64,000 nt of DNA from Betaproteobacteria bacterium (GTDB lineage Bacteria > Pseudomonadota > Gammaproteobacteria > Burkholderiales > SG8-39): positions 2,127 to 66,126 of the forward strand of contig JANMUI010000779.1 of assembly GCA_031391405.1 (NCBI GenBank), in the 5' to 3' direction. Shown here one piece after another: positions 1-15,949 of the stretch (position 1 is the stretch's first letter; the number at the start of each line of letters is the position of its first letter). The notes beneath the pieces are model-generated. The model had not been told where the DNA came from. It ran no database searches and was given only the letters and a program-made list of their open reading frames with translations. Position numbers and translations under genes: made by a program.

Positions 1-2211
1 TTTCAACCGCTAACCGCGCCCGGGTGGTGGGGGATGTTGACCGACGAGCGAACCTTGCTCGTCCTCTTCATGGCCGCCGGGAGTTTTCTGTTCTTCTATC
101 TGTATCTGGGCAAAGCCCTGCGTGACTTGGATCCGTCCCGCGCCGTTCCCGAGCGGGTTCGTTCGGCACTCGACACGCTGGCCGAAGGCCTACTGGTGAT
201 CGATCTCAACGGTCACATCGTTCTCGCCAACCAGTCATTTGCGGCCCTCGTCGGGCGCGCCGCCGACGCATTGCTGGGCCGTTCGGTAACGGACCTTGCG
301 TGGTCGCATCCCGACGGCACTGCGCTGCAGCCGGAAAGTCTTCCATGGGTATTGGCACTTGCGACCGGGGTTCCCCAGCGCAATTCGATGATCAAGCTGC
401 GCGACGGCGAGGACAAGCAGCGCTCGTTCCTCGTGAACTGCTCGCCTGTCCTGGGCAGCGGTGGCCGTCACGGCGGAGTCCTGATCAGCTTTGACGATGT
501 GACCCAGCTCGAACAGCAGGAAGTCGAACTGCGCGAGTCCAAGCGCGCCGCCGATGCCGCGAACCAGGCGAAGAGTGAGTTTCTCGCGAACATGAGCCAT
601 GAGATTCGCACCCCGATGAACGCGATCCTCGGGTTCACCGAATTGCTCCGTCGTGGTCACCATAAAAATGAGCAGGAGCTCCAGAAATACGTCAACACGA
701 TCCATTCAAGCGGAAAGCACCTGCTCGAGCTGATCAACGATGTTCTGGACCTGTCCAAAGTGGAATCCGGACGTTTGGAATTCGAGCGCATCCGGTGTGC
801 ACCCCAACAGATCGTGAGCGAGGTCGTCGAGGCGCTCAGCGCCAAGGCGATGGAGAAGGGAATTGCGCTCGCCTTCGTATGCGAGGGCTTGATCCCGCGA
901 ACCATTGAGACTGATCCGTCACGCCTGCGGCAGATCCTGACCAACCTGGTCGGCAACGCAATCAAGTTCACCGAGGCGGGCGGTGTCAAGATCGTCGCAC
1001 GGATGCTCCCGGGCGGCGACGAAACGTCTGCAGACCATGGGACCGAACGCGCACGTTTCGCCATCGACGTCGTCGACAACGGCATCGGGATTCCTGAGGA
1101 CAAATTCGCGTCTATTTTCGCGCCGTTCGTGCAAGCAGAGAACTCGATTACGCGCAGGTTCGGGGGGACCGGCCTGGGACTTACCATCAGCCGCCGTCTC
1201 GCGCGGGCGCTGGGGGGCGACATTGCCGTGCGTAGCCGGGTGGGCGAGGGAAGCACATTCACCTTGACTGTTGCGACCGGCCCATTGGAGGGCGTTGACC
1301 TGGTTCGCCCCGAGGAGATCACGAGGATCAACGATTCGACATCGGCGACGATCGCCAATCGCTGGCGCTTTCAACCAGCCTGCGTTCTCGTCGTCGACGA
1401 CGGAAACGAGAATCGCGAGCTCGTGCGGGTCGTCCTCGAAGACGCTGGTCTCTCAATCGAGGGCGCGGAGAACGGTCAGGTCGCCGTGGAAAAGGTCCTC
1501 ACCGGATCGTTCGACCTGGTCTTGATGGACGTTCAAATGCCGATCATGGATGGACTCACGGCGACACGCCTGCTGCGCGCGCGAGGACTGCAGATCCCGA
1601 TCATCGCGCTCACCGCAAATGCGATGAAGGGCTTTGAGCAGGAGTTGGCCGATGCCGGGTTCACCGCCTACCTCGCCAAGCCAATCGACTTAGACCTCCT
1701 GGTGCGGACGCTGACCAATTACCTTGGCGCAGAGGAGCTTCCGATCGATCAATCCGACTTCGCCTTCGTTGCCGAGTTCCCGCAGGCGATCAACGGCTCC
1801 AAGACGAGCGCGCCGGTTTCACGGGGCGAGCCCGTGCGGTCACGTTTGGCCGGGAACAGGCGCCTCAGGCCCGTGATAGTGCGATTCATCGACCGACTCG
1901 AAGAGCGCATGCGCGCCATCGAGGATGCGTGGAGCCGGAAGGACGTCCGGCAGGTGGGTGAAATTGCGCACTGGCTCAAGGGCGCAGCAGGTTCAGTGGG
2001 GTTCGATGCATTTACCGAGCCGGCGCAGCAGTTGATGGAACACGCGCGAAGTGGAAAAAGCGACGCCATTGAAGCGGCCCTATCGGTTCTCCAGTCGCTA
2101 GCGGCGCGAGTGGTCGGGCCAGACGACGTTCCACCAATCGCCGCAATTGAGGCCCTTGATGGTCGAGTGGCTGCGCGACATGCCCCTAGCCTTACAGACT
2201 CCTCGTATTAA
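1..2211 (+). CDS. Hybrid sensor histidine kinase (TM-PAS-HisKA-HATPase-REC-Hpt), probably 5'-truncated by the window edge
   Basis: The frame is open from base 1 with no upstream stop, and the first ATG is at 34. Translated bases 1-33 (FQPLTAPGWWG) still align with the paralogous module of the 6368..7933 protein. H-box SHEIRTPMN; HATPase boxes DNGIGI and GGTGLGL; REC (VLVVDD, DLVLMDVQMP, AKP); Hpt HWLKGAAGSVGF. Confidence 0.9.
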   Translation, partial: FQPLTAPGWWGMLTDERTLLVLFMAAGSFLFFYLYLGKALRDLDPSRAVPERVRSALDTLAEGLLVIDLNGHIVLANQSFAALVGRAADALLGRSVTDLAWSHPDGTALQPESLPWVLALATGVPQRNSMIKLRDGEDKQRSFLVNCSPVLGSGGRHGGVLISFDDVTQLEQQEVELRESKRAADAANQAKSEFLANMSHEIRTPMNAILGFTELLRRGHHKNEQELQKYVNTIHSSGKHLLELINDVLDLSKVESGRLEFERIRCAPQQIVSEVVEALSAKAMEKGIALAFVCEGLIPRTIETDPSRLRQILTNLVGNAIKFTEAGGVKIVARMLPGGDETSADHGTERARFAIDVVDNGIGIPEDKFASIFAPFVQAENSITRRFGGTGLGLTISRRLARALGGDIAVRSRVGEGSTFTLTVATGPLEGVDLVRPEEITRINDSTSATIANRWRFQPACVLVVDDGNENRELVRVVLEDAGLSIEGAENGQVAVEKVLTGSFDLVLMDVQMPIMDGLTATRLLRARGLQIPIIALTANAMKGFEQELADAGFTAYLAKPIDLDLLVRTLTNYLGAEELPIDQSDFAFVAEFPQAINGSKTSAPVSRGEPVRSRLAGNRRLRPVIVRFIDRLEERMRAIEDAWSRKDVRQVGEIAHWLKGAAGSVGFDAFTEPAQQLMEHARSGKSDAIEAALSVLQSLAARVVGPDDVPPIAAIEALDGRVAARHAPSLTDSSY

Positions 2212-2221
2212 AAGCCATTCT

Positions 2222-4039
2222 ATGACTGAGAGCACTACCATGAAGATGACACCTACGGTATCCACCGGAGCGGCGGCAGATGGGCAGCTTGTTGACCGGG
2301 AGGACTTGGTAACTCTCGCGAAGGCTACGGTCATGATGGTCGACGACGATCCGATCATGATCGATGCCGTGGAGGCCTTCCTCGGTGAGGCCGGATTTGA
2401 CGCGTTCATTTCCACGACCGATCCGGAGCAAGCGCTGGCAATGATTCGATCGAACAAGCCGGATGTGGTCTTGCTCGATCTGATGATGCCTATACTCTCC
2501 GGATTCGATATTTTGGAGCGCATGCGCGCGGACGCCGAGTTTCGGTACGTGCCGGTCATCGTATTGACATCGTCGAGCTTCTCGGAGACGAAGACGCGGG
2601 CGCTCGAATTGGGTGCGACGGATTATCTCGCGAAGCCCGTGGACCCAAGCGAGCTGATTCTGCGCCTACGCAATACACTCGCATTCAAGGCCTATCAGGA
2701 CCAGCTCGCCTACTACGATACGCTGACGGGATTGCCCAATCGGAAAATGTTTCTCGAGCGTCTAGATTCTGCGCTCAAGCGGGTCCATGGTTCAGGACGG
2801 TCGTGCGCATTGCTGAACTTCAATATCGACCGGTTTCGGCAGATCAACGATACCCTTGGCCATCGCACCGGCGACGAGCTGCTTCGCGCCGTGGCCCACC
2901 GACTCGAGGAGAGCTTGCGCGCTGGAGATGCCGTGGGCCGTCTTATCGAAGGCGAGTCCCGCGTAAGCATGTCGCGGGTCGGCGGAGACGAATTCTCCTG
3001 CCTGGTCGTTGAATTGAACCAAGCGCCGAACGCTGCAGCCATCGCCCGTCGAACGCTTGCCTTATTCACCGAGCCGTTCCTGATCAACGGTCACGAGCTG
3101 TTCGTGACGGGGAGCATCGGCATTGCGGTCTATCCCAACGACGGGGCAGCGAGCGATCTGTTGATGAAGAACGCCAACGCGGCGATGTCCAACGCGAAGC
3201 GGCAAGGTGGCAACCGATTTGTCTTCTACTCGAATGAAATGAATGCCCGTTCTCTGGAGCGGTTGACGCTCGAGAACCGGCTGCGCAATGCGCTCAGCCG
3301 TGGCGAGCTGATCCTCCACTACCAACCAAAGGTCGACGTCACGAGCGGGCGGATCGTTGGTGCAGAAGCACTCCTGCGTTGGCAGAGCCCGGAGCTTGGC
3401 ATGGTGTCGCCTGGAGTGTTCATTCCGCTCGCGGAAGAGACAGGCCTGATTCTGGCGATCGGGGAATGGGTTCTCTTTTCCGCTTGCCGGCAGAGCAAAG
3501 CACTTCAAGAAGCTGGACACGGGATTGTGCCGATTGCCGTCAATGTATCCAGCGTCCAGTTGCGCGGGAAAGAGTTGTTGGCTTCGATATCGACCGCTCT
3601 CGAGGAAACCCGCCTGGATCCCCGATCCCTGATCCTCGAGCTCACCGAGAGCATGTTGATGGACAACGCGAAAGGAGCAGTCGATGTCATGCGTGCGATC
3701 AAGGCGCTTGGCGTGCAGATCGCGCTCGATGATTTCGGCACAGGCTACTCGTCGCTCGCTTACCTGAAGCAGCTTCCGTTGGACGAGTTGAAGATCGATA
3801 AGTCCTTTATCGATACCGTGACGACCGATTCGCGCGACGCTGCCATCGTGTCGACAGTAGTCGCCTTGGCGCACGGCCTCGGTTTGAAAGCGACAGCGGA
3901 GGGCGTCGAAACCAAGGCTCAGCTTGCGATGCTCGGTCGCCTCAAATGTGACCAATACCAAGGATTCTTGTACAGCAAGGCAGTTCCGGCGGAACGCTTT
4001 GCCGAGATCGCCGCGCAGCAGCTCTGCACGACAGACTAG
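2222..4039 (+). CDS. Response regulator with GGDEF and EAL domains (REC-GGDEF-EAL)
   Basis: ATG at 2222, whereas the ORF opening at 2147 overlaps the upstream gene. REC (VMMVDDD, DVVLLDLMMP, AKP); GGDEF (RVGGDEFSCL); EAL-domain motifs EALLRW, ELTES, DDFGTGYSSL, KIDKSF, EGVET. Confidence 0.92.
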   Translation: MTESTTMKMTPTVSTGAAADGQLVDREDLVTLAKATVMMVDDDPIMIDAVEAFLGEAGFDAFISTTDPEQALAMIRSNKPDVVLLDLMMPILSGFDILERMRADAEFRYVPVIVLTSSSFSETKTRALELGATDYLAKPVDPSELILRLRNTLAFKAYQDQLAYYDTLTGLPNRKMFLERLDSALKRVHGSGRSCALLNFNIDRFRQINDTLGHRTGDELLRAVAHRLEESLRAGDAVGRLIEGESRVSMSRVGGDEFSCLVVELNQAPNAAAIARRTLALFTEPFLINGHELFVTGSIGIAVYPNDGAASDLLMKNANAAMSNAKRQGGNRFVFYSNEMNARSLERLTLENRLRNALSRGELILHYQPKVDVTSGRIVGAEALLRWQSPELGMVSPGVFIPLAEETGLILAIGEWVLFSACRQSKALQEAGHGIVPIAVNVSSVQLRGKELLASISTALEETRLDPRSLILELTESMLMDNAKGAVDVMRAIKALGVQIALDDFGTGYSSLAYLKQLPLDELKIDKSFIDTVTTDSRDAAIVSTVVALAHGLGLKATAEGVETKAQLAMLGRLKCDQYQGFLYSKAVPAERFAEIAAQQLCTTD

Positions 4040-4176
4040 CCTTGGAACCCGTTTCAAGATGTGGCTGTTTCGGTCACTCTGAAACGGCCCCTTCACGCTC
4101 AGCCGGCCCGTTTATCGACCCTAGAACCATGTTATCGACCAGCGGTGAGCTGACGGTGTTGCAGGCGAATCGGTAG

Positions 4177-6363
4177 CTATTTGGAAGTCACTTTGGGTCG
4201 AGGCGTCGTCGGCACGTCGCGCGACGACCACTTCTCCAATATCGTGGCCAAGGCTTTCTTGGTCATCGGTTTGCTCAGGAAATCATCCATGCCGGCACTG
4301 GTGCAGGCGTTTTGGTAGTCGGTGAATGCGTGTGCCGTCAAAGCGATGATTATCTGGCGATACCCGCTGCCTGCCTCATGCTTGCGTATCTCGCGCGTGG
4401 CCTCGAGCCCGTCCATCACCGGCATCTGACCATCCATGAGCACGAGGGCGAAGCGCCGCTGCCGGCATAGGGCAACCGCTTCTTCCCCGTTGCCGACTAC
4501 TGTGACACGCGCACCGAGCGATTCGAGCATCCCCGTGACGACCCGCGCATTCACGGTATTGTCCTCGGCGACCAACACGTCGATCGCGCCCTCTGCGCCC
4601 ACTGCGTCTTCCTGCCCGTCGACCGTAGCGGGAGCGGTGGGTCGCCTATCCGCAGTTGCATCGCTCTTAACCGCACCGCCTGACGTGGATTTCGCAGGCG
4701 CGGCGGTCGAACTGAGAACGCGCTGCGTCGAGACTATCGGGCGCTTGAGGGCATCTTTTCCAACCGGCGCTGCGTTGAACGATGCCTTCGTCCCGATCGG
4801 GAGCCGGACGGCAAACCAGAACGTCGAACCGCGGCCGAGTGCACTTTCCACGGCGAGCTCACCGTCGAAGAGGCTGACGATCCGGCTCGAGATGGCAAGC
4901 CCCAATCCCGTCCCGCTGTATGCACGGGTCATGCTGCCATCGGCTTGAGAGAACGCCTGAAAAATCTCGCGCTGCTTGTCCGCTGGGATGCCGATACCGG
5001 TATCGCGCACCGCGAACCGCAGCGCCGTCATCGAATCACTGCCGCCGGTGCGCGTGACCGAGATCGTAATCGAGCCGTGCTCGGTGAACTTAAGCGCGTT
5101 GCCGACAAGATTGATCAGCACCTGCCTGAGCCTGAGCGGATCATCTTTGACTACCGCGGGTACCTCGGGTCCCACTTGGGCGTTGAGCGCCAGACCGATC
5201 GCACGTGCGCCCTCGGTGAACATGTCGGTGATGCTATGAATAAGGTCTCGGACTGCGAACTCGACCGAGGCGAGCTCGATCCGGCCCGCTTCGATCTTCG
5301 AGAAATCCAGGATGTCATTGATGGCACCAAGCAGGGTCACGCCCGAGGAGTGGATCGTCTCGGCCAACTTGCGCTGGCGCTCCTCGAGGTCGGAGTCGAG
5401 CAGTAGCTCGGCCATGCCGAGCACGCCATTCATCGGGGTGCGGATCTCATGACTCATATTCGCCAGGAACTGCGACTTGAGCTTGTTCGCCGCTTCGGCT
5501 GTTTCCTTCGCGAGCTTGAGCTCCTGCGTGCGCTTCTCGACTTTGGTCTCGAGGTTCGATTGATAGGCAAGCACTTCGGTGCGCGATTCGCGCAGCCGCA
5601 CCGCCATTTGATTGAATGCCGCGGAGAGATCCTGCAACTCGTCGCGCGTCTTCAAGGTTACGATTGCGTCAAGATTGCCTTGGGCGATCGCGCGCGTCGC
5701 CTTGGCGAGCTGATCGATCGGCGCGACCAGCCGTCGCGTGAACCAGACGACGATCACGCTGCCGAGCAAGATCACGAGAAGCGCGCTGACCCCTACGACC
5801 GCGAGGAAGTTCAGGAACTGGTCGCGGATTCGCACCTCGCTTACCGCTACACGCACGTAGCCATCGATCACCAGGGGTGCTGCCATCGCCTCCCGCGCGG
5901 TGGGCGCAGCGTCGTTGGGGGCGCCCGCCTTGGGGCTTCTGACCGGCACGATAATTTCGTGATAGCGCACGCCGCTGGCAGTCACGCCGGCCATGGTCTG
6001 GTGCGAAACTGCACCGGTTGGCCAAGACTTTGGCGCTTGTTGGGACGAAAATCCCTCGCGGGGGCCCGACGCTGTTACTACTTGACCTACTGCGTTGTAA
6101 AGCGCTACGTAGATCACATCGGATTGCTGTGCCGCCGAGCGGACTATGAGGAGTGGCTCCGAGCGCGCCTCGCCCGACAGGTGCGGTCCGCTCAGTTGCG
6201 CCACCATGCGTGCGAGCTTGGTGGCCTGACCGATAAGTTGTGCTCGTCCTTCTTGGAGCTCCGTGTACACCGAGACGGTCCCAACGCCTAGTGCCGCCAG
6301 CAGCGACAGGGCGGCGAACAACAGTCGCAGCTTCAACTCTATGCGCATTGTGCGATTGGCCAT
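4177..6363 (-). CDS. HAMP-containing hybrid sensor histidine kinase with C-terminal REC
   Basis: ATG at 6363 ([11 protein letters not shown]) lies 4 nt after the stop of the upstream gene; extending to 6555 would overlap that gene. Architecture is TM, periplasmic region, TM, then HAMP ([18 protein letters not shown]). H-box [10 protein letters not shown]; HATPase DTGIGI and GTGLGL; REC ([19 protein letters not shown]). Confidence 0.9.
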
Positions 6364-6367
6364 GGCG

Positions 6368-7933
6368 TTACCCCGCACTCGATTCTGCGGCCGCGGTATC
6401 CGCGGCGGTCGCGTGCGTTTCTTGGTCCTGCTCGACCGATTCGCCAGCCCGGCAGACGCGATTGCGCCCCCCACGTTTGGCGCGGTACAGCGCCTGGTCA
6501 GCCGCCTCGATGGCCTGAACAACGCCGGTCGTGTCATCAAGCGTTGCCACACCAAGGCTGGCCGTAACGTGGAATCCAGGTATTTCCCGAATGGCGGGCC
6601 CGCACTGCTCGTCGATCGCTCGCCTTATCCGCTCGGCGACGATGGCTGCCTGCGCGAGGTCGGCGTTCGGCAAGCCGACGCAGAACTCTTCACCCCCATA
6701 GCGGCAGATCACGTCTTTGGTGCGCGATGCCGTCACGAGCTTCTTCGCGACTTCCTGAATTACACGATCACCTGTCGCGTGCCCGTACGTGTCATTGACC
6801 GATTTGAAGCGGTCGATGTCGAGGATCAAGAAGCTGAGCGGCGTCCCGCCTCGCCTCGACTCCACCAGCGCCGCCTCCATCTGCTCGAAGAATGCGCGCC
6901 GGTTGAGACATCCGGTGAGAGAGTCGCGGGTCGCCAGGCGCTCAAGCGCCTCGTTCTTCTGTGCGATCTCGTCGCGCGAAATGGCAAGCTCGACCAGCGT
7001 TTCGCGCAGCCGCTCGTTCGAGCGGTGCAGCTCGGTGACATCGTTCATGGTCACCATGCAACCTCGCACGGAGCCGCCGGGATCTCCAATCGGCGCGCAA
7101 TTGATGATGAGTTTCCTGCTGATACCGGAATCCGTTGCGATCTCGATCTCGTGCCCCATCGTCGGCACTTGTTCGATCATCGTTTGTACCCAAGGATGGC
7201 GGTGTGAATCGTCGGGCAGGTATTCGGCCAACCAGTGGAGCGTCGAGAGGCGCTTGCCGGTCAGATCGAGGCCGTCATTACCGTGCAAGGCGCGAAACGC
7301 ATTGTTCGCAAGTAGGATGCGCCCCCGCGAGTCGAGCAGTACCACCGCCTCGGCCATGACGTCGTAGGCAAGGCGCACGCGCTCCGGAATGACTGCGGAA
7401 GGATCCAGTCGAAGCAACGCGCGCCGCATGTAGAGCCAATAGACGAGTATGCCTCCCAGCGAAACGAACAAGATCGTGATCCAGAGCGGCTCGGTCAGCG
7501 CGCGGCGGAACGCGTTCCGCGGGTCCGGAACGTAGGTCATCTCGAACGTGCCCCAGCGATCCGTTCCGAACGTAAGGGGCACGACCACGTGGGTCAAGGT
7601 GGAGCGGTCATTGCGCGTTTCTGACCAGGCATCCTCATGGTCTCCAGCCTGGGCCACCAACGTCTGATCGGCGCGACGCACCGCAATGGAGCGCACTTCG
7701 TTGCTGCGCTGCCGCAGCGCCTCCAGGGATTGCTCCAGTGCGAGACGGTCGCCGAATTGCATCAGCGTGGCCACTTGCACGGCCATGCCCTCGCTCACCG
7801 ACTTCCGCACCTTCATCATCTGCGATGTGCGGTCGGGCAATACATTGAAGACGGTATCGGCGATGACGATCAGGAAGTTGGTCAGGAAGACCAATCCCAA
7901 GGTGATCTGCAGGGTGGGGCCGATGCGTCTCAC
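6368..7933 (-). CDS. Membrane-bound PAS-GGDEF diguanylate cyclase
   Basis: GTG start at 7933 overlaps the stop of the upstream small ORF (GTGA). Two TM segments flank a ~120-aa periplasmic region, followed by a PAS-like segment. GGEEF is at 6683..6697, with an RxxD I-site (RTKD) five residues upstream. Confidence 0.9.
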
Positions 7934-8301
7934 GCTCGACTCACGGGCCTGTGAATGTCCGCAGCGCGTTCATCGAGCACCATGGCGGCGGCCTGCTCCT
8001 CCAACTCGGCCTGATCGCCGTGCGAGGCATTCGGGATGCGCGCTGGGGGTGGCTCGTCCTCCTCTTCGCGCTCCACGATCGCCAGCAAGTCCACATGCCG
8101 CCAGATCGGCAGGCCCATCACCAGCAGCGAGGTCCAGCCGCTCGAGCGCACCAACCACAACAGCGCACCTGCGACCAGCACTGAGCTGGCCAACCATAGC
8201 GGGTCATTTGTCAATCCTTCGCGCTCGCTCGAATGATTGTGTCGCCAATGGACTCCGACGGTTTGCGCCACCAGGGGCCGCGGCCAGCGGATCGTTGCCA
8301 T
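7930..8301 (-). CDS. Small membrane protein with acidic C-terminal tail (hypothetical)
   Basis: ATG at 8301 overlaps the 3' end of the giant gene by 98 nt; an in-frame TTG at 8214 is an alternative start. Hydrophobic stretch LWLASSVLVAGALLWLV...WTSLLVMGLPIW is followed by EREEEDEPPP...AELEEQ. The stop overlaps the GTG start of the cyclase gene. I see no recognisable family. Confidence 0.5.
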   Translation of the reverse strand: MATIRWPRPLVAQTVGVHWRHNHSSEREGLTNDPLWLASSVLVAGALLWLVRSSGWTSLLVMGLPIWRHVDLLAIVEREEEDEPPPARIPNASHGDQAELEEQAAAMVLDERAADIHRPVSRA

Positions 8302-11251
8302 CTGTTGGGACCGGCGCGCCGATCAACGCGTCACCCGAGTCTCCGCTCGACGCACTGCTCACTGTCGGACCAACCGTTGTGGTTGGGCCGACTACGGCGG
8401 CCAAGGCCGTACTGCTCAGGCTCTCGGCAGTGCCCTGCGCATCGGTGTAACCCACGATCACCCGTATCTGATCGCCCACGTCGGTGGCGGTGAGCAAATA
8501 GATTGACGCAGTGGCCCCGCTCAGGTTGATCCAAGTCACGCCATCGGCGGAGCGCTGCCATTGGAAGCTGACGGCGCTCAGACCGTCAGCGTCGCCAATG
8601 GTGGAAGTGTCCGCGCTGAGCGATTGCGCTTCGGTGGCTGTGCCAATGAGGGCAACCGCACCGGTGGGCGCATCGTTGACGTTGGCGACCGCTGCGGTTT
8701 GGGCACTGGTGAGCGGGCCTTCGGGCGTACCCTGTCCATCGGTGTAGCGCACCTGTACCGAAATCTGCGTGCCGACATCGGCGTCTCCTAACGTGAAGGT
8801 GTTAGCCGTCGCACCCCCAATCGCGATCCCGTTCCTCAACCACTGGTAGCTGAAGACGCCTACGCCATCGACATCCGCGATGCCCGCGGAGGTAGCCGTC
8901 AAGATCTGGTCTTCGCTCACGGTTCCAGTAATCGTTGGCATCCCGGCAGGCGCATCATTGACCGCTGTCACATTGACGGTGAGCGTGTTGGGCGCGGCGT
9001 CGAACGCATTCGACTGATCGCGCACGCTGAAGGTGAAGCTCGCGTAGCCCGCGCCGGTGGCATTCGCGGCCGGCGTGAACACCAGATTGCCCGCGGCGAG
9101 CTGAGCAGTGGTGATCACGTCGCCCGCGTTCACTGCAACGCCTGACAACGTGAGTGAACCCGCGACCGGAACCGAATCGATACGCACCGCTAAGATGCTG
9201 TCGCCCGCGTCCACGTCGGTGAAGCCGAAGGTGGCCGAGGCGAAGGTGTAGGCGGTGTCTTCGTTCGTCGTGACGGTGGCGTTGGTGCCCGCGGGCGCAT
9301 CGTTCACCGCGGTCACATCCACCGTCAACGTGTTCGGCGCGGCGTCATACACACTCGACTGATCGCGCACGCTGAAGGTGAAGCTCGCGTAGCCCGCGCC
9401 GTTGGCATTGGCCGCGGGCGTGAAGACGAGGTTGCCGGCGGCGAGCTGCGCGGCCGTGACCACCTGCCCGGCCGAGACCGCCGCACCGGAGAGCGTGAGC
9501 GAACCCGCGCCCGGAACCGAGTCGATGCGCACCGCCGAGAGGCTGTCACCCGCATCCACGTCGGTGAAGCCGAAGGTGGCGGCAGAGAAGGTGTAGGCGG
9601 TGTCTTCGTTGGTCGTGACGGTGGCGTTGGTGCCGGCGGGCGCGTCGTTCACGGCGGTGCCAGTCATCGCCTTGCTGCCGGTCACGGCCGCCGCGACGCT
9701 GACGCTGGTGGCGATGGTGAAGTTGCCGTTGAAATTGGACGCTGGGTTGAACGTCACGCCGGCCAGCAGGGTGTTGACGTTGGCCAGGGCGCCGCTGGCG
9801 GTCCACACGCCGGTGCCGGCGACATATGTGGAGGTCACCGCACCGGAGGTGGCGGTACTCAGGCTGCCGGCGGCGGTGTTGGACAGGGTCAAGGTCGCCG
9901 TGACGCTGGCGCTGTCGACGTCGCTGATCACGATGTCGGTCAGGTTCAGCGCGGTGTCTTCGGTATAGGTTTGGGCCGCACTCAGATTGGTGGCGCTGGG
10001 CGCGGCGTTGGTAGACTCGATCAGGCGAAACGCCATGTCCTTCGAGCCATCGTCCGTGCCATCGCCGGGGTTGATCTTGGCGCCGGTCGTGTAGGTGCCC
10101 GAATCGTGTACGCCGACATACACCTTGCCACCGTCCGTGCTGCTTTCGATGCGAATGAAATAGTTCTGGTTGTCATTCAGCGTCGCGGTGCTGCTCAGGC
10201 TGATCGTTACCCACGCCTCGGTGGTTCCCAGACTCGAGCTCGCGATCGTTCCGCTGGCGATGATCGCGCCGTTGTAGGTCGAGCGCAACGACACGGTGAT
10301 GTTCTGCGCCGAGGTATCGCTGGCACCGTAGAGCACCAGGCCGATCTTGTCGACGGTGTAAGTCGCCGTCGGGCTGTCGTACCGAACCTTCATGATCTGC
10401 GGCTGACTCGACTTGACCTCGTACGCTTGGTCGCCCATGTTGCCAAACGTGGGCTCGTACGAGTGGATCGTGGTGTCGGCCAACAGGCCAAGCCACTCGT
10501 GTTGTGCCTCAGCGCTCACGGCCACGCCCGTCTCGATGCTTCCCTGCGAAATCTCCAGCTGCCAGTCACCGCCCAGCGACTCGTGCCCGGTCGCATCGAC
10601 ACTTGCCGCGACGTCCGCACCCGTCAGGCGCGCGAGGTGTTCCACGAATGCTTGCCCGGCCGTGCCCTGCGCCACGTCGCAACCATAGATCAGCAGGTCG
10701 GCATCGGCGCTCAGCGCCTCGCGCCAGCTCTGCAGCTCGGTGGCGCGGGCCTCCAGCGCACTCGAGTCGAGCGTCGTGTTTCCGAGTTGCAGCAGCCCGG
10801 GTCGGCCGTGCGAGACGATGTGGATCGCGGCAACATCCTTCTGGTCAGCGAGCGCTTCGTTGATCTGCGCGATCCCATCGCGACTCGCGTCGATGAGAAT
10901 GATCTCTATGGTGCGTTCGCTGCGGGCATTGGCGGTGATATCCGCGACGAGCTGTTCGGCGTTCGGTATGCGTGCATCGACGAACACGATCTCGCGGGAG
11001 CGCTCTTCCTGCAATGAGAAGACTGCGAGCGAGGCGTGCTGAGCATTGACGGTGCTCTCATCGATTTGACGCACCTCACCTTGGAGGGCAGCTTCCGGGG
11101 CAGGCGCGGCGACCGGATTGAGATCTCCCGAATACAGAATGCGCGGCTCGAGCTCCTCGATGGTGGCCGAGGGCGCCTCCTCAGCGTTGGGGCGCCCCAG
11201 GTTCTTCAGCCAGCGGAAAATGCCCATACCATTCTCTCCGCGTCGTGTCAT
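8204..11251 (-). CDS. Giant DUF4347-type N-domain / cadherin-like repeat surface protein (putative adhesin)
   Basis: ATG at 11251 overlaps the stop of the upstream adaptor (ATGA). An alternative ATG at 11227 has GGAGAG upstream. N-terminal LEPRILYSG motif at 11126..11152. DUF4347-like block (EIVFVDARIPN...IHIVSHGRPG...LLIYGCDVAQG...GGDWQLE). A beta-rich middle domain follows, then repeated VNDAP...FTDVD...GYASFTFSVRD modules and two FQW/YQW...GAT...DVG...YTD.QGT modules. No Sec-type signal peptide and no GGxGxD RTX repeats are evident. Confidence 0.85.
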   Translation of the reverse strand: MTRRGENGMGIFRWLKNLGRPNAEEAPSATIEELEPRILYSGDLNPVAAPAPEAALQGEVRQIDESTVNAQHASLAVFSLQEERSREIVFVDARIPNAEQLVADITANARSERTIEIILIDASRDGIAQINEALADQKDVAAIHIVSHGRPGLLQLGNTTLDSSALEARATELQSWREALSADADLLIYGCDVAQGTAGQAFVEHLARLTGADVAASVDATGHESLGGDWQLEISQGSIETGVAVSAEAQHEWLGLLADTTIHSYEPTFGNMGDQAYEVKSSQPQIMKVRYDSPTATYTVDKIGLVLYGASDTSAQNITVSLRSTYNGAIIASGTIASSSLGTTEAWVTISLSSTATLNDNQNYFIRIESSTDGGKVYVGVHDSGTYTTGAKINPGDGTDDGSKDMAFRLIESTNAAPSATNLSAAQTYTEDTALNLTDIVISDVDSASVTATLTLSNTAAGSLSTATSGAVTSTYVAGTGVWTASGALANVNTLLAGVTFNPASNFNGNFTIATSVSVAAAVTGSKAMTGTAVNDAPAGTNATVTTNEDTAYTFSAATFGFTDVDAGDSLSAVRIDSVPGAGSLTLSGAAVSAGQVVTAAQLAAGNLVFTPAANANGAGYASFTFSVRDQSSVYDAAPNTLTVDVTAVNDAPAGTNATVTTNEDTAYTFASATFGFTDVDAGDSILAVRIDSVPVAGSLTLSGVAVNAGDVITTAQLAAGNLVFTPAANATGAGYASFTFSVRDQSNAFDAAPNTLTVNVTAVNDAPAGMPTITGTVSEDQILTATSAGIADVDGVGVFSYQWLRNGIAIGGATANTFTLGDADVGTQISVQVRYTDGQGTPEGPLTSAQTAAVANVNDAPTGAVALIGTATEAQSLSADTSTIGDADGLSAVSFQWQRSADGVTWINLSGATASIYLLTATDVGDQIRVIVGYTDAQGTAESLSSTALAAVVGPTTTVGPTVSSASSGDSGDALIGAPVPTDGNDPLAAAPGGANRRSPLATQSFERARRIDK
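8969..9658 (-). repeat. Two near-identical tandem 345-bp (115-codon) coding repeats inside the giant gene
   Basis: TAVNDAPAGTNATVTTNEDTAYTF... recurs at protein residues 570, 685 and 800. The DNA of 8969..9313 and 9314..9658 aligns with only scattered substitutions. Confidence 0.85.
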
Positions 11252-12309
11252 TTCGCGGCGACGGGTCGCAGCGACGAATGCGCAGGGAGGGCGCCCGACG
11301 TGGCGCGAGCGCCTGATGTTGGGGCGGCTGTCTCGGGCAATTTCAGTCCCAGGTCGACCTTGCATCGCAGCCCGGCGGGCAAGGCGGCGTCGGGATTGGG
11401 CAGCTCGAGACGTACGCGAAACGTACTGCTCGCCGCATCGATGACGCGATCGACGGTCTTGACCGTGGCGGTGCGTTCTTGCCGGTCCAGCAACTCGGGG
11501 ACGACAGTCGCCTTCTGGCCCGCCTTCACCTGCCCGAACGCGGTCGCCGGCACGAGCACGTCGACGCGCAGCGGATTGATGCTGGCGATGCGCATCACCG
11601 GTTTGTCGTCGACGCGCTCTCCCACCGATGCGAAGCGATCCACCACCACACCGGAAATCGGCGCGCGGATGGTGCGCATGTTCAACTGCGCGACCGCGAG
11701 GTCGACTTCCTTTGTCGCCGCCGTCCGCTTCTCCCGGACCTGGTCCGTGCGCCCTTCCGCAACCTGCACCTCGGTGCGCTGTTTGTCCAGATAGGTCTGC
11801 GAGACGAAGCTCTTCTCGTACAACTCGTTGGCACGGCCGAGCTCGCGGTGCGCAAACGCCCGCGAGCTTTGCGCGGCAGCAAGCTCACCGGCCTGCGCGG
11901 CACGCTCACGGGCAAGGGCAAGCGATGCGCGTTCGACGTCGGCATGCAATTGCGCGACGACTTGGCCCTGCTTCACGATGTCCCCGCGTTCGGCCCAAAG
12001 CCGCTCGATCACCCCGACGAGCGCGAGCGCCACGCCCAATAAGGAGGGCGTCAATCCGCGACTGCGTAACATCCGCTGCACTCGCGCTACCGAATCCGAC
12101 CAAGACCGCGCGGACCCCTGGCTGAAACGGGTCCGCGCGTTCGCGAGCGATCGCGACACGGGCCGCGGCAACCGACGGGATTCAGCAGCCGAACAGGCGT
12201 CACCCATTAACCGCGCCAAACCGTGAAGCCGGCCGTGCGAGTCGTCGACTTCCCGCTCGGGATATGCGCTCCAGACGAGTCCGGGAGAAGGGAGTGTCCG
12301 TGCGCTCAT
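11248..12309 (-). CDS. HlyD-family periplasmic adaptor (membrane fusion protein-like)
   Basis: ATG at 12309 overlaps the stop of the upstream gene (ATGA). Arg-rich cytoplasmic N-terminus, one TM (LTPSLLGVALALVGVI), then GDIVKQGQVVAQL, a coiled coil, RTIRAPISGVVVDRFASVGERV and a beta-barrel segment. Confidence 0.8.
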   Translation of the reverse strand: MSARTLPSPGLVWSAYPEREVDDSHGRLHGLARLMGDACSAAESRRLPRPVSRSLANARTRFSQGSARSWSDSVARVQRMLRSRGLTPSLLGVALALVGVIERLWAERGDIVKQGQVVAQLHADVERASLALARERAAQAGELAAAQSSRAFAHRELGRANELYEKSFVSQTYLDKQRTEVQVAEGRTDQVREKRTAATKEVDLAVAQLNMRTIRAPISGVVVDRFASVGERVDDKPVMRIASINPLRVDVLVPATAFGQVKAGQKATVVPELLDRQERTATVKTVDRVIDAASSTFRVRLELPNPDAALPAGLRCKVDLGLKLPETAAPTSGARATSGALPAHSSLRPVAAK

Positions 12310-14468
12310 CGCTCGAAATGCCGCAAGAAGGTGCGTCGCGTGAGCAGCTGCAGCTGTTGGGCAAGCGTTGCTTCACCGTGACGAAAAGTTACGAGCACGC
12401 GCACGCCAATGGGCGCCGCCATGGCATGGGCCAACCGCAGATCGAATTGGAACCAGGCCTCGAGCGCGGTCTTCCCGCTCTGATCGCTGGAATCGGTGGC
12501 GATGCTGCCGCCGCCCGGCTCACCCATCGCCTCGCTCGGGAGCTCACGTGCCGCCTGTGGAATCTCTCGCTCGATGCGAGCGCTATGTGCGGCCCCGATC
12601 TCGTTTGCGAGACGGACATGGATCTCACCAGGCCGCTCGCGCACCAGCGCCACATCTTCGTTGCGCACAAGCACGCGCACGAGCGGGGCGTCCTGGACGA
12701 GGACGTGACCGAACACCTCACCTTGTTCGACGAATCGGCCGGGGGCATCCTGGGCGCGGTCCAGCGCAGCCGCCCCGCTGCGTTCCGCCCGCACGCTCAG
12801 CGCCTCGTTCTTTTGCTGGAGTCGCCGCTGCTCAGAACGCAACTGGTCGATCTTGTCAGGGAGCACTGCGACGCGCATCGGTTCTGTTTCGTATCGCACC
12901 GCGCGCTCGACGGCGTGCTGCTTGAGCGAGGCGCTGACGCGCTCGAGGTCGACCGGAAGCTGATCGTTCGCAAGTTGTGCAATCACCGCGCCCCCGGAAA
13001 CGGGTTCGCCATCGCGCGCCTCAAGTTTTTCGATGAACCCTTCCACGCCCGCGCGTACCGTTGCATCGTCGGGGAGCCAGACGATTCCCGGCGCGTAAGT
13101 CACTTGCGGCAGCGGTACGGCGAAGACCGCGCCGACGACGGCCGTCAAGAGGGCGAGACCGAGGGCGACGGCGCGCCCACGCTGACCGACCAGCTCGCGC
13201 GAATCGACCATATAGACGAGCGCCCGCAATACCGGCCATACGATCAGCAGAACGGCACCAATCGCTGCGACAGAGAGCGCTGTGGCGGCATTGAACTGCG
13301 CGATCACCAGCACGAAGAACGCGAACAGCAGGCACCGATAAACCCACGCGAGCGGCGCATACAGGATGAGCCAAGGGCGCTCGCCGTACTCGAGCGCCGG
13401 TGCGCCGATGCGTCGCACGCCGATGAGGTGCCGCTTCGCCAGATGACGCCAATAGGTGGTGCTGCGTGCCGCGAGATTGGGCAACTCGAAGAGGTCGCAC
13501 AGCACGAAGTAGCCATCGAATCGGAGCAAGGGATTGCCGTTGACCAGCAATGTGGAGACACCCGCTGTGAGCGCCACTGCGAAAGCGAGATCACGAAGCC
13601 ATCCGCCGTCGGCCGCGAGCCACACGACGAGCGCCACAGCGGCGATCACCAGCTCGACCATGATGCCGGCTGCGGCGACTGCCGCGCGCTCCCACTTTTC
13701 GGGGAATGCCGTGGACGCCGAAGCGTCCACATACGGCACCGGCGTCAGGAAGAGCAAGGTCACGCCCATTTCGCGTACATCCCCACCGAACGCTTTGACT
13801 GCGAACGCGTGGCCGAGCTCATGGAGGACCTTGATACAGGGATAGGCGATCCATAACGCGAGGAGCATGCCGGTCGTTGGCAGCTGAGCGGCCGCGAAAG
13901 CGGAGAGCTCGCGTGCGTTGATCATCCAGAGCAGGAGGCCAAGCAGCGCCGTGAGCGTGAACACCACGGCAGCGCCTCGGCTATACATCCAGCGTACATA
14001 GCCCACGGTGTGCGAAATGAACGTGTCCGGATCCCACAGCGGGACACGAAACGCGAGCGGATTGAGGGCGCTCTCCCCACGGCGGCGGCGGGACCGATCG
14101 CCGCGTTTGACGATCGCCGCGGCGTCCGGTGTAACGTCGGCCACGATGAGATTCGCCTCGAACGCCTGGCTGAGGATGCGAATGGCCTCACCTTGCGAAA
14201 TTGCGTGTTCGCCATCGATCTTGACGCGCGCGTTCCATACCTCGTCGACCGTCCGCTGCCCGTCGCAGGAGGCGACCAGACGGTATGCCAGCTGGTTGAA
14301 TCGATGGTGGCGTCCGGAAGCGGGATCGGAGAAGACGTACCACCGTGCGCCGCGAACGATCTGTCGGCTGACCTTGACGCCCGGGCGGACACGCGGACGT
14401 AACTGGGCGACCCGGTACCAGTCCGGAGAGTGGAGGGATGCACGCCTGTTCACGCGAGCGCTCTCCAC
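12306..14468 (-). CDS. Fusion protein: PqqD-like N-domain + M50 (site-2-type) zinc metalloprotease + C-terminal HlyD-like adaptor region
   Basis: GTG at 14468, or GTG at 14453 forming GTGA with the upstream stop. N-terminal segment is RWYVFSDPASGRHHRFNQLAYRLVASCDGQRTVDEVW. HELGH at 13809..13823, plus a second M50 motif GNPLLRFDGY, with multiple TM helices. The C-terminal 260 aa carry a lipoyl-like hairpin, a coiled coil and a barrel. Confidence 0.85.
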   Translation of the reverse strand: MESARVNRRASLHSPDWYRVAQLRPRVRPGVKVSRQIVRGARWYVFSDPASGRHHRFNQLAYRLVASCDGQRTVDEVWNARVKIDGEHAISQGEAIRILSQAFEANLIVADVTPDAAAIVKRGDRSRRRRGESALNPLAFRVPLWDPDTFISHTVGYVRWMYSRGAAVVFTLTALLGLLLWMINARELSAFAAAQLPTTGMLLALWIAYPCIKVLHELGHAFAVKAFGGDVREMGVTLLFLTPVPYVDASASTAFPEKWERAAVAAAGIMVELVIAAVALVVWLAADGGWLRDLAFAVALTAGVSTLLVNGNPLLRFDGYFVLCDLFELPNLAARSTTYWRHLAKRHLIGVRRIGAPALEYGERPWLILYAPLAWVYRCLLFAFFVLVIAQFNAATALSVAAIGAVLLIVWPVLRALVYMVDSRELVGQRGRAVALGLALLTAVVGAVFAVPLPQVTYAPGIVWLPDDATVRAGVEGFIEKLEARDGEPVSGGAVIAQLANDQLPVDLERVSASLKQHAVERAVRYETEPMRVAVLPDKIDQLRSEQRRLQQKNEALSVRAERSGAAALDRAQDAPGRFVEQGEVFGHVLVQDAPLVRVLVRNEDVALVRERPGEIHVRLANEIGAAHSARIEREIPQAARELPSEAMGEPGGGSIATDSSDQSGKTALEAWFQFDLRLAHAMAAPIGVRVLVTFRHGEATLAQQLQLLTRRTFLRHFER

Positions 14469-15949
14469 AGCATGCGGCGCAGCCAGTTGGCGGCACGATG
14501 TGTCCAGATCCCGATGAGCCGCCGCTCCTCGATATCGATCTTCGCCACGCCCTGCAAGCCCGGTCGCAATCCACCAACCTGATCTGCCTCATTGGGTGCG
14601 ACGTGTGCCTCCGCTTCGAAGAAATTCCAGCCGTCGCGCGCCATTGCGATGGGGGCGACGCGGGTGAGTTGCAGGTCGAATGGCCTGGTCGTTTCGGCGG
14701 CGAACAGCACGCGCGCGCGCTGGCCGACGCGAACGGCGCCGACATCCTGCTCATCGACCTCGAGGATCACGCGATATTCATTCGCCGGGGCGACCACCAT
14801 CAGGATTTGCCCGCGCTTGACGGGCGCCCCGATCGATTGGAGCAGATCGCCCTTGATCACGACGCCATCGATGGGCGCCTGGAGGCGAGTGCGTGCGAGG
14901 CGTTGCAGGACCAACCCGAGCTCCGTGCGTGCCTGATCGTGCTTCGCCTTGGCGATCACGATGCTGGCGGCATCGTCCTTGCTCAGCGCTTCGCGATATT
15001 GCTTGTCCAGCTGTGCCATCTCCGCTTCCCACTTGTCCCGCTCGAGCGCAAGGTCACGGTCCTCGAGTGCGGCCAATGCCTGACCGATTTTTACGGCCTG
15101 CCCCGGCCGTACGTGTACGTCGCGGAGGAATCCGTCCACGGGCGCCGCGACGACACGCTCGATTGCACCCTCGATGTGCGCCGGTGCGGTGATGCGAAAG
15201 GTGACCGGCCACATTGCCGCGCCAATCGCCAATGCCAGCATCGCGAGAAAAATAAACTTGCCGGGCGATGATGCGACCCCGTGCAGCCGCTGACCGCGCT
15301 TAGCTAGCAGATCCTCCCAGCGGCGCGCCAACGAATCATCGACCCGATGCTTCAGTGCGAGGACCGGTCCGACGAACAGTGCGACGTCCTGTGCCAGTCG
15401 AACCGCTTCGGCGTTGAATCCCTTTTGACCCTCGAGCAGCACCGCGCCCAGCAGTCGATCGCGATCCGCGATCGGCACGGTGCAGATCGCTGCGCGCGCG
15501 CTGCTCTCCGAGAGGCGCGCATGAGCGAGGGTTACCTTTGGCGAGGACCCCTGCGGCGTTGGATGGACGATGGTCGTCCGCTGATCGAGTGACTCCTCCA
15601 TCGCCGCACCGATGATGCGAACAAGGCTCTGCCGCTCGCGGAAATCCCCGGTATTGGAGATTGCCGCGATCGCGATTCGACCCTTGCGAATAAAGCCAAT
15701 GCTGACGCGATCGCATCCGAGCATCGAGCACAACTCGGTCGTGACGGCGCTTGCCGCCACTTGGAATCGGGCGTGCGAGAGGGCTCGCGCCTGAAGCGCG
15801 AGGACCGTGCCAATCCGCGCCATGCGCTGCTGCGTGCGCGCGGCGGGCGGTGGCTCCCCGGGTGGGCCGGACGCGTGCGGCCGCGGTGAAACGGGCGGCG
15901 CGACGCGCTTGGTCTGGTCGTCGGTGGACGTACTCTCTAGGGCGAGCAA
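14450..15949 (-). CDS. GAF-domain protein fused to HlyD-family adaptor
   Basis: The ORF opens with TTG at 15949; ATG at 15823 (MARIGTVLAL) is an alternative start. GAF-like N-domain (LGCDRVSIGFIRKGR...LLGAVLLEG). TM (FIFLAMLALAIGAAMW), then PVDGFLRDVHVRPGQAVKIGQALAAL, a coiled coil and RLQAPIDGVVIKGDL. Confidence 0.8.
   Translation of the reverse strand: MLALESTSTDDQTKRVAPPVSPRPHASGPPGEPPPAARTQQRMARIGTVLALQARALSHARFQVAASAVTTELCSMLGCDRVSIGFIRKGRIAIAAISNTGDFRERQSLVRIIGAAMEESLDQRTTIVHPTPQGSSPKVTLAHARLSESSARAAICTVPIADRDRLLGAVLLEGQKGFNAEAVRLAQDVALFVGPVLALKHRVDDSLARRWEDLLAKRGQRLHGVASSPGKFIFLAMLALAIGAAMWPVTFRITAPAHIEGAIERVVAAPVDGFLRDVHVRPGQAVKIGQALAALEDRDLALERDKWEAEMAQLDKQYREALSKDDAASIVIAKAKHDQARTELGLVLQRLARTRLQAPIDGVVIKGDLLQSIGAPVKRGQILMVVAPANEYRVILEVDEQDVGAVRVGQRARVLFAAETTRPFDLQLTRVAPIAMARDGWNFFEAEAHVAPNEADQVGGLRPGLQGVAKIDIEERRLIGIWTHRAANWLRRMLWRALA

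Follow-up and report, generated by a model that had tools for sequence, protein, structure and literature searches.

Do two membrane sensors that share an input module and are encoded by convergent genes read the same signal? The question is raised by a stretch of 64,000 nucleotides from Betaproteobacteria bacterium (GenBank assembly GCA_031391405.1, contig JANMUI010000779.1, contig positions 2127-66126; hereafter the window), in which a hybrid histidine kinase and a GGDEF diguanylate cyclase each lie next to genes for a giant cadherin-like surface protein. The initial annotation of this DNA proposed that both proteins read one signal and together form a push-pull circuit of cyclic di-GMP (c-di-GMP) around the adhesin locus. 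We consider it fairly likely instead that the window holds two paralogous giant-adhesin cassettes, each with its own sensor of one family, that these sensors respond to protein partners, and that their opposite outputs belong to separate systems. How bacteria sense the export, anchoring or engagement of giant adhesins is largely unknown, and the best-studied case, the Lap system, runs from c-di-GMP to the adhesin. The sensor family described here (∼1,900 clusters with the module at the N-terminus) is a testable candidate for signalling from an adhesin to c-di-GMP: gene order links it to the membrane anchor of giant proteins and to a little-studied SecA-like/M50/HlyD export machinery, and its kinase and cyclase forms allow one input to be compared with two natural outputs.

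Two sensors with one input module

The module common to the two proteins comprises their N-terminal ∼310 residues: a first transmembrane helix (TM1), a periplasmic domain of ∼110 amino acids (aa), a second transmembrane helix (TM2), a linker with the motif LDPxxxxPERV and a PAS domain. The kinase-type sensor (P0005, 870 aa) occupies window positions 1..2211 on the plus strand and starts at contig position 1725, 401 bases before the window; its TM1 and periplasmic domain, which belong to the shared module, are encoded before the window start, and they are followed by TM2 (49-114), the LDPS..PERVR linker, PAS (151-513), HisKA (568-771), HATPase (913-1272), REC (1384-1710) and Hpt (1882-2109). 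The cyclase-type sensor (P0004, 521 aa) is encoded on the minus strand at 6368..7933, with TM1, the periplasmic domain at 7502-7834, TM2 at 7424-7501, PAS at 7022-7384 and GGDEF at 6458-6934.

Aligned with BLASTP, the full kinase and the cyclase are 32% identical over 307 aa (E 2e-47), collinearly from TM1 to the end of PAS, and the part of the kinase encoded within the window gives 34% identity over 182 aa (E 2e-29). The motif LDPS-x3-PERVR is found at residues 177-188 of the kinase and 176-187 of the cyclase, and its conservation is 97% or higher in both families. Some 40 positions reach at least 80% conservation in the kinase-type family as well as in the cyclase-type one; ten of them are periplasmic, and the shared conserved periplasmic residues include R43, S82, R86, H99, W103, W127, G128 and E131 (cyclase numbering). 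The PAS domains themselves score above the Pfam gathering cut-offs (PAS_4 at 53 bits versus 23.1 in the kinase; PAS_4 at 39.7 bits and PAS_9 at 39.2 bits versus 27 in the cyclase). The similarity is not that of generic PAS domains, because a tblastn search with either module against the whole assembly (8.1 Mb, metagenome-derived, fragmented into 1,045 contigs, estimated contamination 8.96%) finds only the other module at E<1e-3. To judge from their sequences, the two modules are true homologues. The initial annotation was thus right that kinase and cyclase carry the same module, with its juxtamembrane motif in the same place, and it had located both PAS domains correctly.

Anchors of giant proteins adjoin the sensor genes

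We compared the genomic contexts of module genes in 61 loci from named genomes plus five from assemblies, using a four-sequence mixed alignment of the module as the search query and mapping domains by tblastn; an anchor was counted as upstream when its open reading frame (ORF) ended <250 bp from the sensor gene. The anchor consists of a hydrophobic hairpin, whose motif is W..R.G.L...L...PAWR..DPLP.L, and an acidic tail behind it, and is conserved across phyla. Of 54 loci, 46 have an anchor-bearing ORF directly 5' of the sensor gene, comprising all 23 kinase-type loci and 23 of the 31 cyclase-type ones; the two genes often share a four-base ATGA overlap, and in those loci the anchor is the C-terminal end of a giant DUF4347/cadherin protein. 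The link to an adhesin locus is therefore far stronger than had been supposed from the window. Five further cyclase-type loci have an HlyD gene of the same locus upstream of the sensor. When the search was started from the anchor in five genomes, six of nine anchors adjoined a sensor and six of seven full sensors adjoined an anchor. A complete kinase-type locus is found, for example, in Thiobacillus, with genes for a GAF-HlyD protein, an M50 protease, a SecA-like ATPase, a giant protein with anchor, the sensor kinase, a REC-GGDEF-EAL protein, an HlyD protein and a second giant protein.

Both cassettes of the window lie on a single contig. On the plus strand, the C-terminus of a giant cadherin-like protein is followed by the hybrid kinase and a REC-GGDEF-EAL gene. 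The contig encodes 573 C-terminal residues of this kinase-side giant, the remainder (including the N-terminus) lying off the contig start; its anchor is in frame, and the ATG of P0005 overlaps its stop codon (ATGA). The minus-strand cassette, which converges on the first, reads GAF-HlyD, M50 with an HlyD tail, HlyD, a LEPR-XLL/DUF4347/cadherin protein, a 123-codon ORF, the cyclase and a HAMP kinase. Its adhesin (8204..11251, minus strand), a cadherin-like protein with tandem-95 repeats, scores above the cut-offs for both head families (LEPR-8K 22.7 bits versus 17; DUF4347 197.6 versus 24.6), and at ∼1,015 aa is short for its family, whose members elsewhere have 2,000-8,000 aa.

The anchor of the cyclase-side adhesin is not in frame with it. 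It is encoded by the 123-codon ORF (P0247; 7930..8301, minus strand), which carries an anchor hairpin (LWLVRSS..LPIWRHVD) with an acidic tail, is homologous to the C-terminus of the kinase-side giant (E 1e-6 between the anchors), and has a stop codon that overlaps the start of the cyclase gene (GTGA). This ORF overlaps the adhesin ORF by 98 nt (8204-8301) out of frame, and the split may reflect a frameshift or an error of assembly, or the gene may truly be divided. In the closest relative (locus L038, 4731-5654), the cyclase-type sensor is preceded by a small anchor-only protein; its N-terminus is signal/lipobox-like, and ∼100 residues separate this from the anchor hairpin. Upstream in L038 there is no detectable gene for a giant protein; here the anchor-sensor pair has outlived the ectodomain.

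Two other arrangements deserve mention. In one locus (L064:6238-11607), a second giant protein with an LEPR motif, DUF4347 and a cyclase-type anchor is encoded downstream of a kinase-type sensor, and is followed by a PIN/VapC-like ORF and no sensor. In Aquabacterium parvum B6 (L050:6923-11080), a protein of 1,385 aa joins an LEPR-like leader, DUF4347 and cadherin and beta-helix repeats to TM2-PAS-GGDEF, skipping the anchor, TM1 and the periplasmic domain. It was considered as a Rosetta-stone fusion of adhesin and sensor and set aside, being the only such protein among 5.8 billion; it is probably a strain-specific in-frame deletion and is not used as evidence.

Two old paralogues placed tail to tail

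The window contains one kinase-type and one cyclase-type cassette, tail to tail, and in none of ∼58 related loci do the two types of sensor occur together. In the cassette most similar to the kinase one (87% identity), the REC-GGDEF-EAL gene is followed by an ABC transporter, at the place where the window has the converging cyclase cassette. Since no related locus pairs the types and the nearest kinase relative has a transporter there, the tail-to-tail arrangement is probably local and incidental.

A tree of 63 modules has three supported groups: a proteobacterial cyclase clade that includes the window's cyclase, a kinase clade that includes its kinase, and a mixed Planctomycetota/Desulfobacterota clade. 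Locus L006 groups with the kinase module of the window (support 100) and L038 with the cyclase module (support 98). Because the two copies fall in separate supported clades, they are on this tree old paralogues from two deep clades, not products of a local duplication. The same tree requires at least three switches between kinase and cyclase outputs.

Anchor sequences cluster by the clade of the adjoining sensor. A metagenome-assembled genome of Rubrivivax (G439) that has both sensor types, on different replicons, illustrates this. It encodes four anchor-bearing giants (2,627-8,034 aa; C2:1233265, 1247028, 3916842; C1:539194) and two sensors: the anchor adjoining the kinase-type sensor is of the kinase type, and the three giants without an adjoining sensor all have anchors of the cyclase type; the unlinked cyclase-type sensor sits beside export genes. 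It is more likely, we infer, that each sensor reads its own adhesin or export system rather than a shared signal. The idea of a designed convergent pair reading one signal is not supported by this comparison, in which the two sensors belong to anciently separated clades, go with their own anchor types and export sets, and are paired in none of the related loci.

The module is present in at least seven of 41 relatives, in none of three genomes of the same genus, and in at least four of 393 good genomes of the phylum sample; these counts of carriers are lower bounds, the larger run having scored five candidates per genome. This distribution suggests that the cassettes move horizontally, because none of the three same-genus genomes and only seven of the 41 relatives carry the module.

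Probably opposite c-di-GMP outputs

The domain calls of the initial annotation (a HisKA-REC-Hpt kinase, a REC-GGDEF-EAL protein with both motifs intact, a GGEEF cyclase with an RxxD I-site and a HAMP hybrid kinase) all hold. The kinase has the architecture of a multi-step phosphorelay hybrid kinase (BarA/TorS/ArcB type), with H-box His H334 (HEIRTP), receiver Asp D644 (DVQMP) and Hpt His H791 (HWLKG) in one chain. Its scores against the BarA model (383 bits, equivalog cut-off 890) and the TorS model (350 versus 676) rule it out as an orthologue of either.

In 18 of 23 kinase-type loci the gene after the sensor encodes a REC-(GGDEF)-EAL protein, and this conserved pairing supports the earlier suggestion that the kinase may feed the REC-GGDEF-EAL protein, which is its probable phosphorelay target. 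The window's response regulator (2222..4039, plus strand; 605 aa from ATG 2222) has an intact GGDEF motif, no RxxD I-site, and the EAL-domain motifs EALLR (407), ELTE (498), DDFGTG (528), KID (549) and EGVE (585). In an alignment of this protein with 17 relatives, EAL, ExTE, DDFGTG, KxD and EGVE are conserved in 18 of 18 (the exception being a truncated copy in L058, which lacks the EGVE region), and 14 of the 18 have a degenerate GGDEF motif (AGDEF, GSDEF, EHDTF and others) and four, including that of the window, an intact one. Because the EAL motifs are kept throughout and GGDEF is mostly degenerate, the conserved activity of the kinase arm is predicted to be c-di-GMP breakdown.

The cyclase has the motif RTKD-x4-GGEEF at residues 404-417, with the RxxD I-site five residues upstream of GGEEF. 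Among 92 cyclase-type relatives, the RxxD and GGEEF positions either do not vary or show at least 90% conservation, and by these motifs the cyclase arm is predicted to be an active GGDEF diguanylate cyclase. The two arms probably act on c-di-GMP in opposite directions, which is plausible because the kinase's partner keeps the EAL motifs while the cyclase arm conserves RxxD and GGEEF. The opposite directions implied by the push-pull proposal are thus retained as plausible, and its circuit around one signal is not.

Periplasmic domain

AlphaFold models built on family alignments have a mean predicted local distance difference test score of 90.8 for the whole cyclase and 91.9 for residues 1-180. 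The periplasmic part is modelled as two helices followed by a four-stranded sheet. Its nearest, weak, Foldseek match is the extracellular domain of WalK (9a5d_A, E 1.6e-4; also 7dud and 4ywz); the periplasmic output domain of CdgS9, a LapD orthologue, is another weak match (4u64, E 1.6e-2, TM-score 0.56), and the further weak neighbours are other small PAS/Cache-like sensor domains. In the model, then, the periplasmic domain is a small PAS/Cache-like domain. The WalK extracellular domain and the CdgS9 periplasmic domain both act via protein partners.

No Pfam family reaches its threshold on the periplasmic domain in the 54 family members scanned. CHASE8 (PF17152) was rejected: it scores 17.1-19 bits on the cyclase (cut-off 27), does not match the kinase, and is seen in three of 54 members, always below threshold; so was sCache_4 (PF09984), with 16.3 bits in the cyclase (cut-off 22.1) and sub-threshold matches in six of 54 members at E 3e-4 or weaker. 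When solved structures were searched with a profile of the whole module, only generic PAS matches over the cytoplasmic PAS domain were obtained, and the first 155 residues were unmatched.

Size and architectures of the sensor family

Database searches with the module alone gave at least 154 cyclase-type clusters and more than 1,120 kinase-type clusters. A profile of the first 178 positions of the module matched 1,863 representative clusters among 1.84 billion, 846 of them below E 1e-30, and the match is at the very N-terminus in nearly all of the best 150 matches listed. Identity to the query is ∼46-55% within a type and ∼30-33% between types over the full module.

Four architectures are found: module-GGDEF (∼510 aa); module-HisKA-HATPase-REC-Hpt (∼840-980 aa); module-GGDEF-GGDEF-EAL (∼1,000 aa; P0260 and ∼100 others); and a few members with HD-GYP. 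Every output found in the family is either an enzyme acting on c-di-GMP or a relay to one. As a side observation, the module-GGDEF-GGDEF-EAL proteins resemble a fusion of a cyclase-type sensor with the GGDEF-EAL gene that comes after it in loci L005 and L030.

The family has no Pfam model, and we found no published description of the sensor, the anchor or their link: searches of the literature on DUF4347, LEPR-XLL, CHASE8, SecA/M50/HlyD, secondary SecA, and giant adhesins with hybrid kinases turned up nothing on the sensor-anchor system.

Proposed mechanism and alternatives

We propose that each sensor would report the state of its own giant protein, anchor or export machinery, most likely by protein-protein contact through its periplasmic and transmembrane part, and that the cytoplasmic PAS domain would pass the signal on to the relay or to the cyclase. 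In the kinase-type sensor, phosphate would travel from His to Asp to Hpt and finally reach the REC domain of the REC-GGDEF-EAL response regulator, which would, by its conserved activity, break down c-di-GMP; the cyclase-type sensor would synthesize c-di-GMP directly, under feedback through its I-site. The arms would then push c-di-GMP oppositely, as outputs of two separate systems. We favour sensing of a partner because of the gene order, the translational coupling, the agreement between anchor and sensor types, and the dependence of the fold neighbours on protein partners. More tentatively, the module may be an outside-in reporter of adhesin state, its periplasmic/transmembrane part binding the C-terminal hairpin of the giant (PAWR..DPLP) directly; insertion of the anchor, mechanical load, or M50-dependent processing or release would switch the sensor. 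If so, engagement of a giant surface protein would set c-di-GMP directly, via breakdown in the kinase arm or synthesis in the cyclase arm, the reverse of the inside-out logic of LapD.

Several observations weigh against partner sensing by two separate systems. Gene adjacency and matching trees are also expected from plain co-inheritance of neighbours; about a quarter of the cyclase-type sensors have no anchor detected directly upstream, and three of the nine anchors in the five genomes have no adjoining sensor. The fold matches are weak (E 1.6e-4 and 1.6e-2, TM-scores 0.4-0.56). The window's own REC-GGDEF-EAL protein keeps its GGDEF motif and may act in net synthesis, and the cyclase-type cassette looks partly decayed, with no SecA-like gene, a short adhesin and an anchor out of frame, so that the window's cyclase arm may have lost its input.

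Could both sensors still read one external signal in parallel, the convergent pair being a purpose-built push-pull circuit that controls the adhesin locus? The many positions conserved in both families, ten of them periplasmic, would allow the two sensors to bind a similar ligand or partner; their outputs are plausibly opposite, and both sensor types co-occur in the Rubrivivax genome. We nevertheless regard this as quite unlikely: the modules are only 32% identical and belong to separate deep clades, each sensor goes with an anchor type and export genes of its own, the types are side by side in no other locus (in Rubrivivax they are on different replicons), and the closest relative of the kinase cassette has unrelated genes downstream. 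Rather doubtful, too, is a general envelope or chemical cue, that is, a ligand in the Cache-like domain or a cofactor or metabolite in the PAS domain, with adjacency reflecting co-expression only and no contact between anchor and sensor. Many domains with a PAS/Cache-like fold do bind small molecules, the cytoplasmic PAS matches, at low scores, PAS domains that bind cofactors, and the existence of sensors without anchors and of anchors without sensors also speaks for such a cue. It sits poorly, however, with the unbroken adjacency in the kinase clade and its overlapping stop and start codons, with anchor types that track sensor types even for unlinked genes in one genome, and with the small anchor-only protein that L038 keeps before its sensor where there is no giant ectodomain; moreover, no known cofactor motif is conserved in the cytoplasmic PAS, and the cysteine of its NC[SA]P motif is not universal.

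The signs of decay in the cyclase-type cassette lead to another explanation, which bears on the window only: the cyclase arm would be an evolutionary remnant, unregulated or silent, and only the kinase-type cassette would work. There is no SecA-like gene between its M50 and HlyD genes, the sole SecA-like match in the genome, which may be the housekeeping SecA, being on another contig (C811, 37% identity), and both the length of the adhesin and the frame of its anchor would fit a degraded locus. On the other hand, the reading frames of the cyclase, the HAMP kinase, the anchor and the three adaptors are all complete, and their stop and start codons are coupled; the separate small anchor protein of L038 suggests that a split anchor may work, and the frameshift could be an assembly error. 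We think a remnant unlikely, and two cassettes with partner-sensing proteins remain our preferred explanation.

Comparison with known systems

The Lap system (LapA, LapD and LapG of Pseudomonas fluorescens and P. putida; CdgS9 of Legionella) similarly ties a giant repeat adhesin to c-di-GMP through an inner-membrane signalling protein with a TM-periplasmic-TM-cytoplasmic layout, and the periplasmic fold of the present module has the CdgS9 output domain (4u64) among its nearest neighbours. The inferred flow is reversed, however: the present sensor makes c-di-GMP or controls its turnover, whereas LapD binds it. The HAMP domain and the degenerate GGDEF-EAL receptor of LapD have no counterpart here, and the LapD model gives 135 and 54 bits (cut-off 1020). 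The adhesin differs as well: it has a LEPR-XLL/DUF4347 head at the N-terminus and ends in a membrane hairpin. Peptidase_C93, to which control genomes respond, detected no LapG-type protease in the genome; the window locus has no ABC transporter of a type I secretion system, and an RTX C-terminus is also absent from the adhesin. Judged by these sequence features, the present system is not a Lap system.

The export set that flanks the sensors (GAF-HlyD, M50, SecA-like ATPase and HlyD) is the same as that of the secondary SecA_DEAD/Peptidase_M50/HlyD/GAF locus described by Kamneva, Poudel & Ward 2015 (PMC4452313), except that the window's copy lacks the SecA-like gene. The text of that paper does not mention GGDEF, histidine kinases, cadherin or DUF4347, and the sensor, the anchor and the link to c-di-GMP are therefore not described there.

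WalK with YycH/YycI in Firmicutes, the best fold match, also has a small extracytoplasmic PAS/Cache-like domain with transmembrane helices that are controlled by membrane-anchored partners from the same operon. The match is weak, there is no sequence relationship beyond generic PAS, and the partners, outputs and phyla are others. YfiN/DgcN (CHASE8-HAMP-GGDEF) with YfiR is likewise a membrane cyclase in which a partner protein controls the periplasmic domain, and CHASE8 is seen below threshold in the window's cyclase; the latter, however, has no HAMP domain and has a PAS domain after TM2, and it matches the DgcN model (150 bits versus 325) over the GGDEF domain only. As with the CHASE, Cache and MASE sensor domains of kinases, cyclases and chemoreceptors, one input module is fused to alternative outputs, but in the present family these are confined to c-di-GMP enzymes or a relay to them, and the module is tied to one specific gene neighbour.

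Other features of the window

The last gene of the cyclase-type cassette encodes a HAMP hybrid histidine kinase (4177..6363, minus strand; 728 aa from ATG 6363) with two transmembrane helices, HAMP, HisKA, HATPase and REC, and no Hpt. A gene of this type also follows the cyclase-type sensor in locus L003 and is absent from that place in most other loci. Between this gene and the REC-GGDEF-EAL gene, the convergent gap (4039-4177) was inspected for promoter-like and terminator-like sites, and none was found.

The export genes of the cyclase-type cassette lie at 11248..15949 on the minus strand and supply three of the four components: GAF-HlyD (14450-15949), the M50 protease with an HlyD tail (12306-14468) and HlyD (11248-12309). 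The SecA-like ATPase is absent between M50 and HlyD (11248-14468), where at least 14 related loci have such a gene at the equivalent place. The window's M50 protein is closest to that of a cyclase-type locus (L010, 42%). A second GAF-HlyD/M50 pair, 40% identical to that of the window, is found on a 5-kb contig of the same assembly (C602:1408-5089) and runs off the contig end; its M50 protein is 46-49% identical to those of kinase-type loci. This contig probably carries the first genes of the kinase cassette, left unjoined in the assembly; the giant gene of that cassette begins outside the window's contig.

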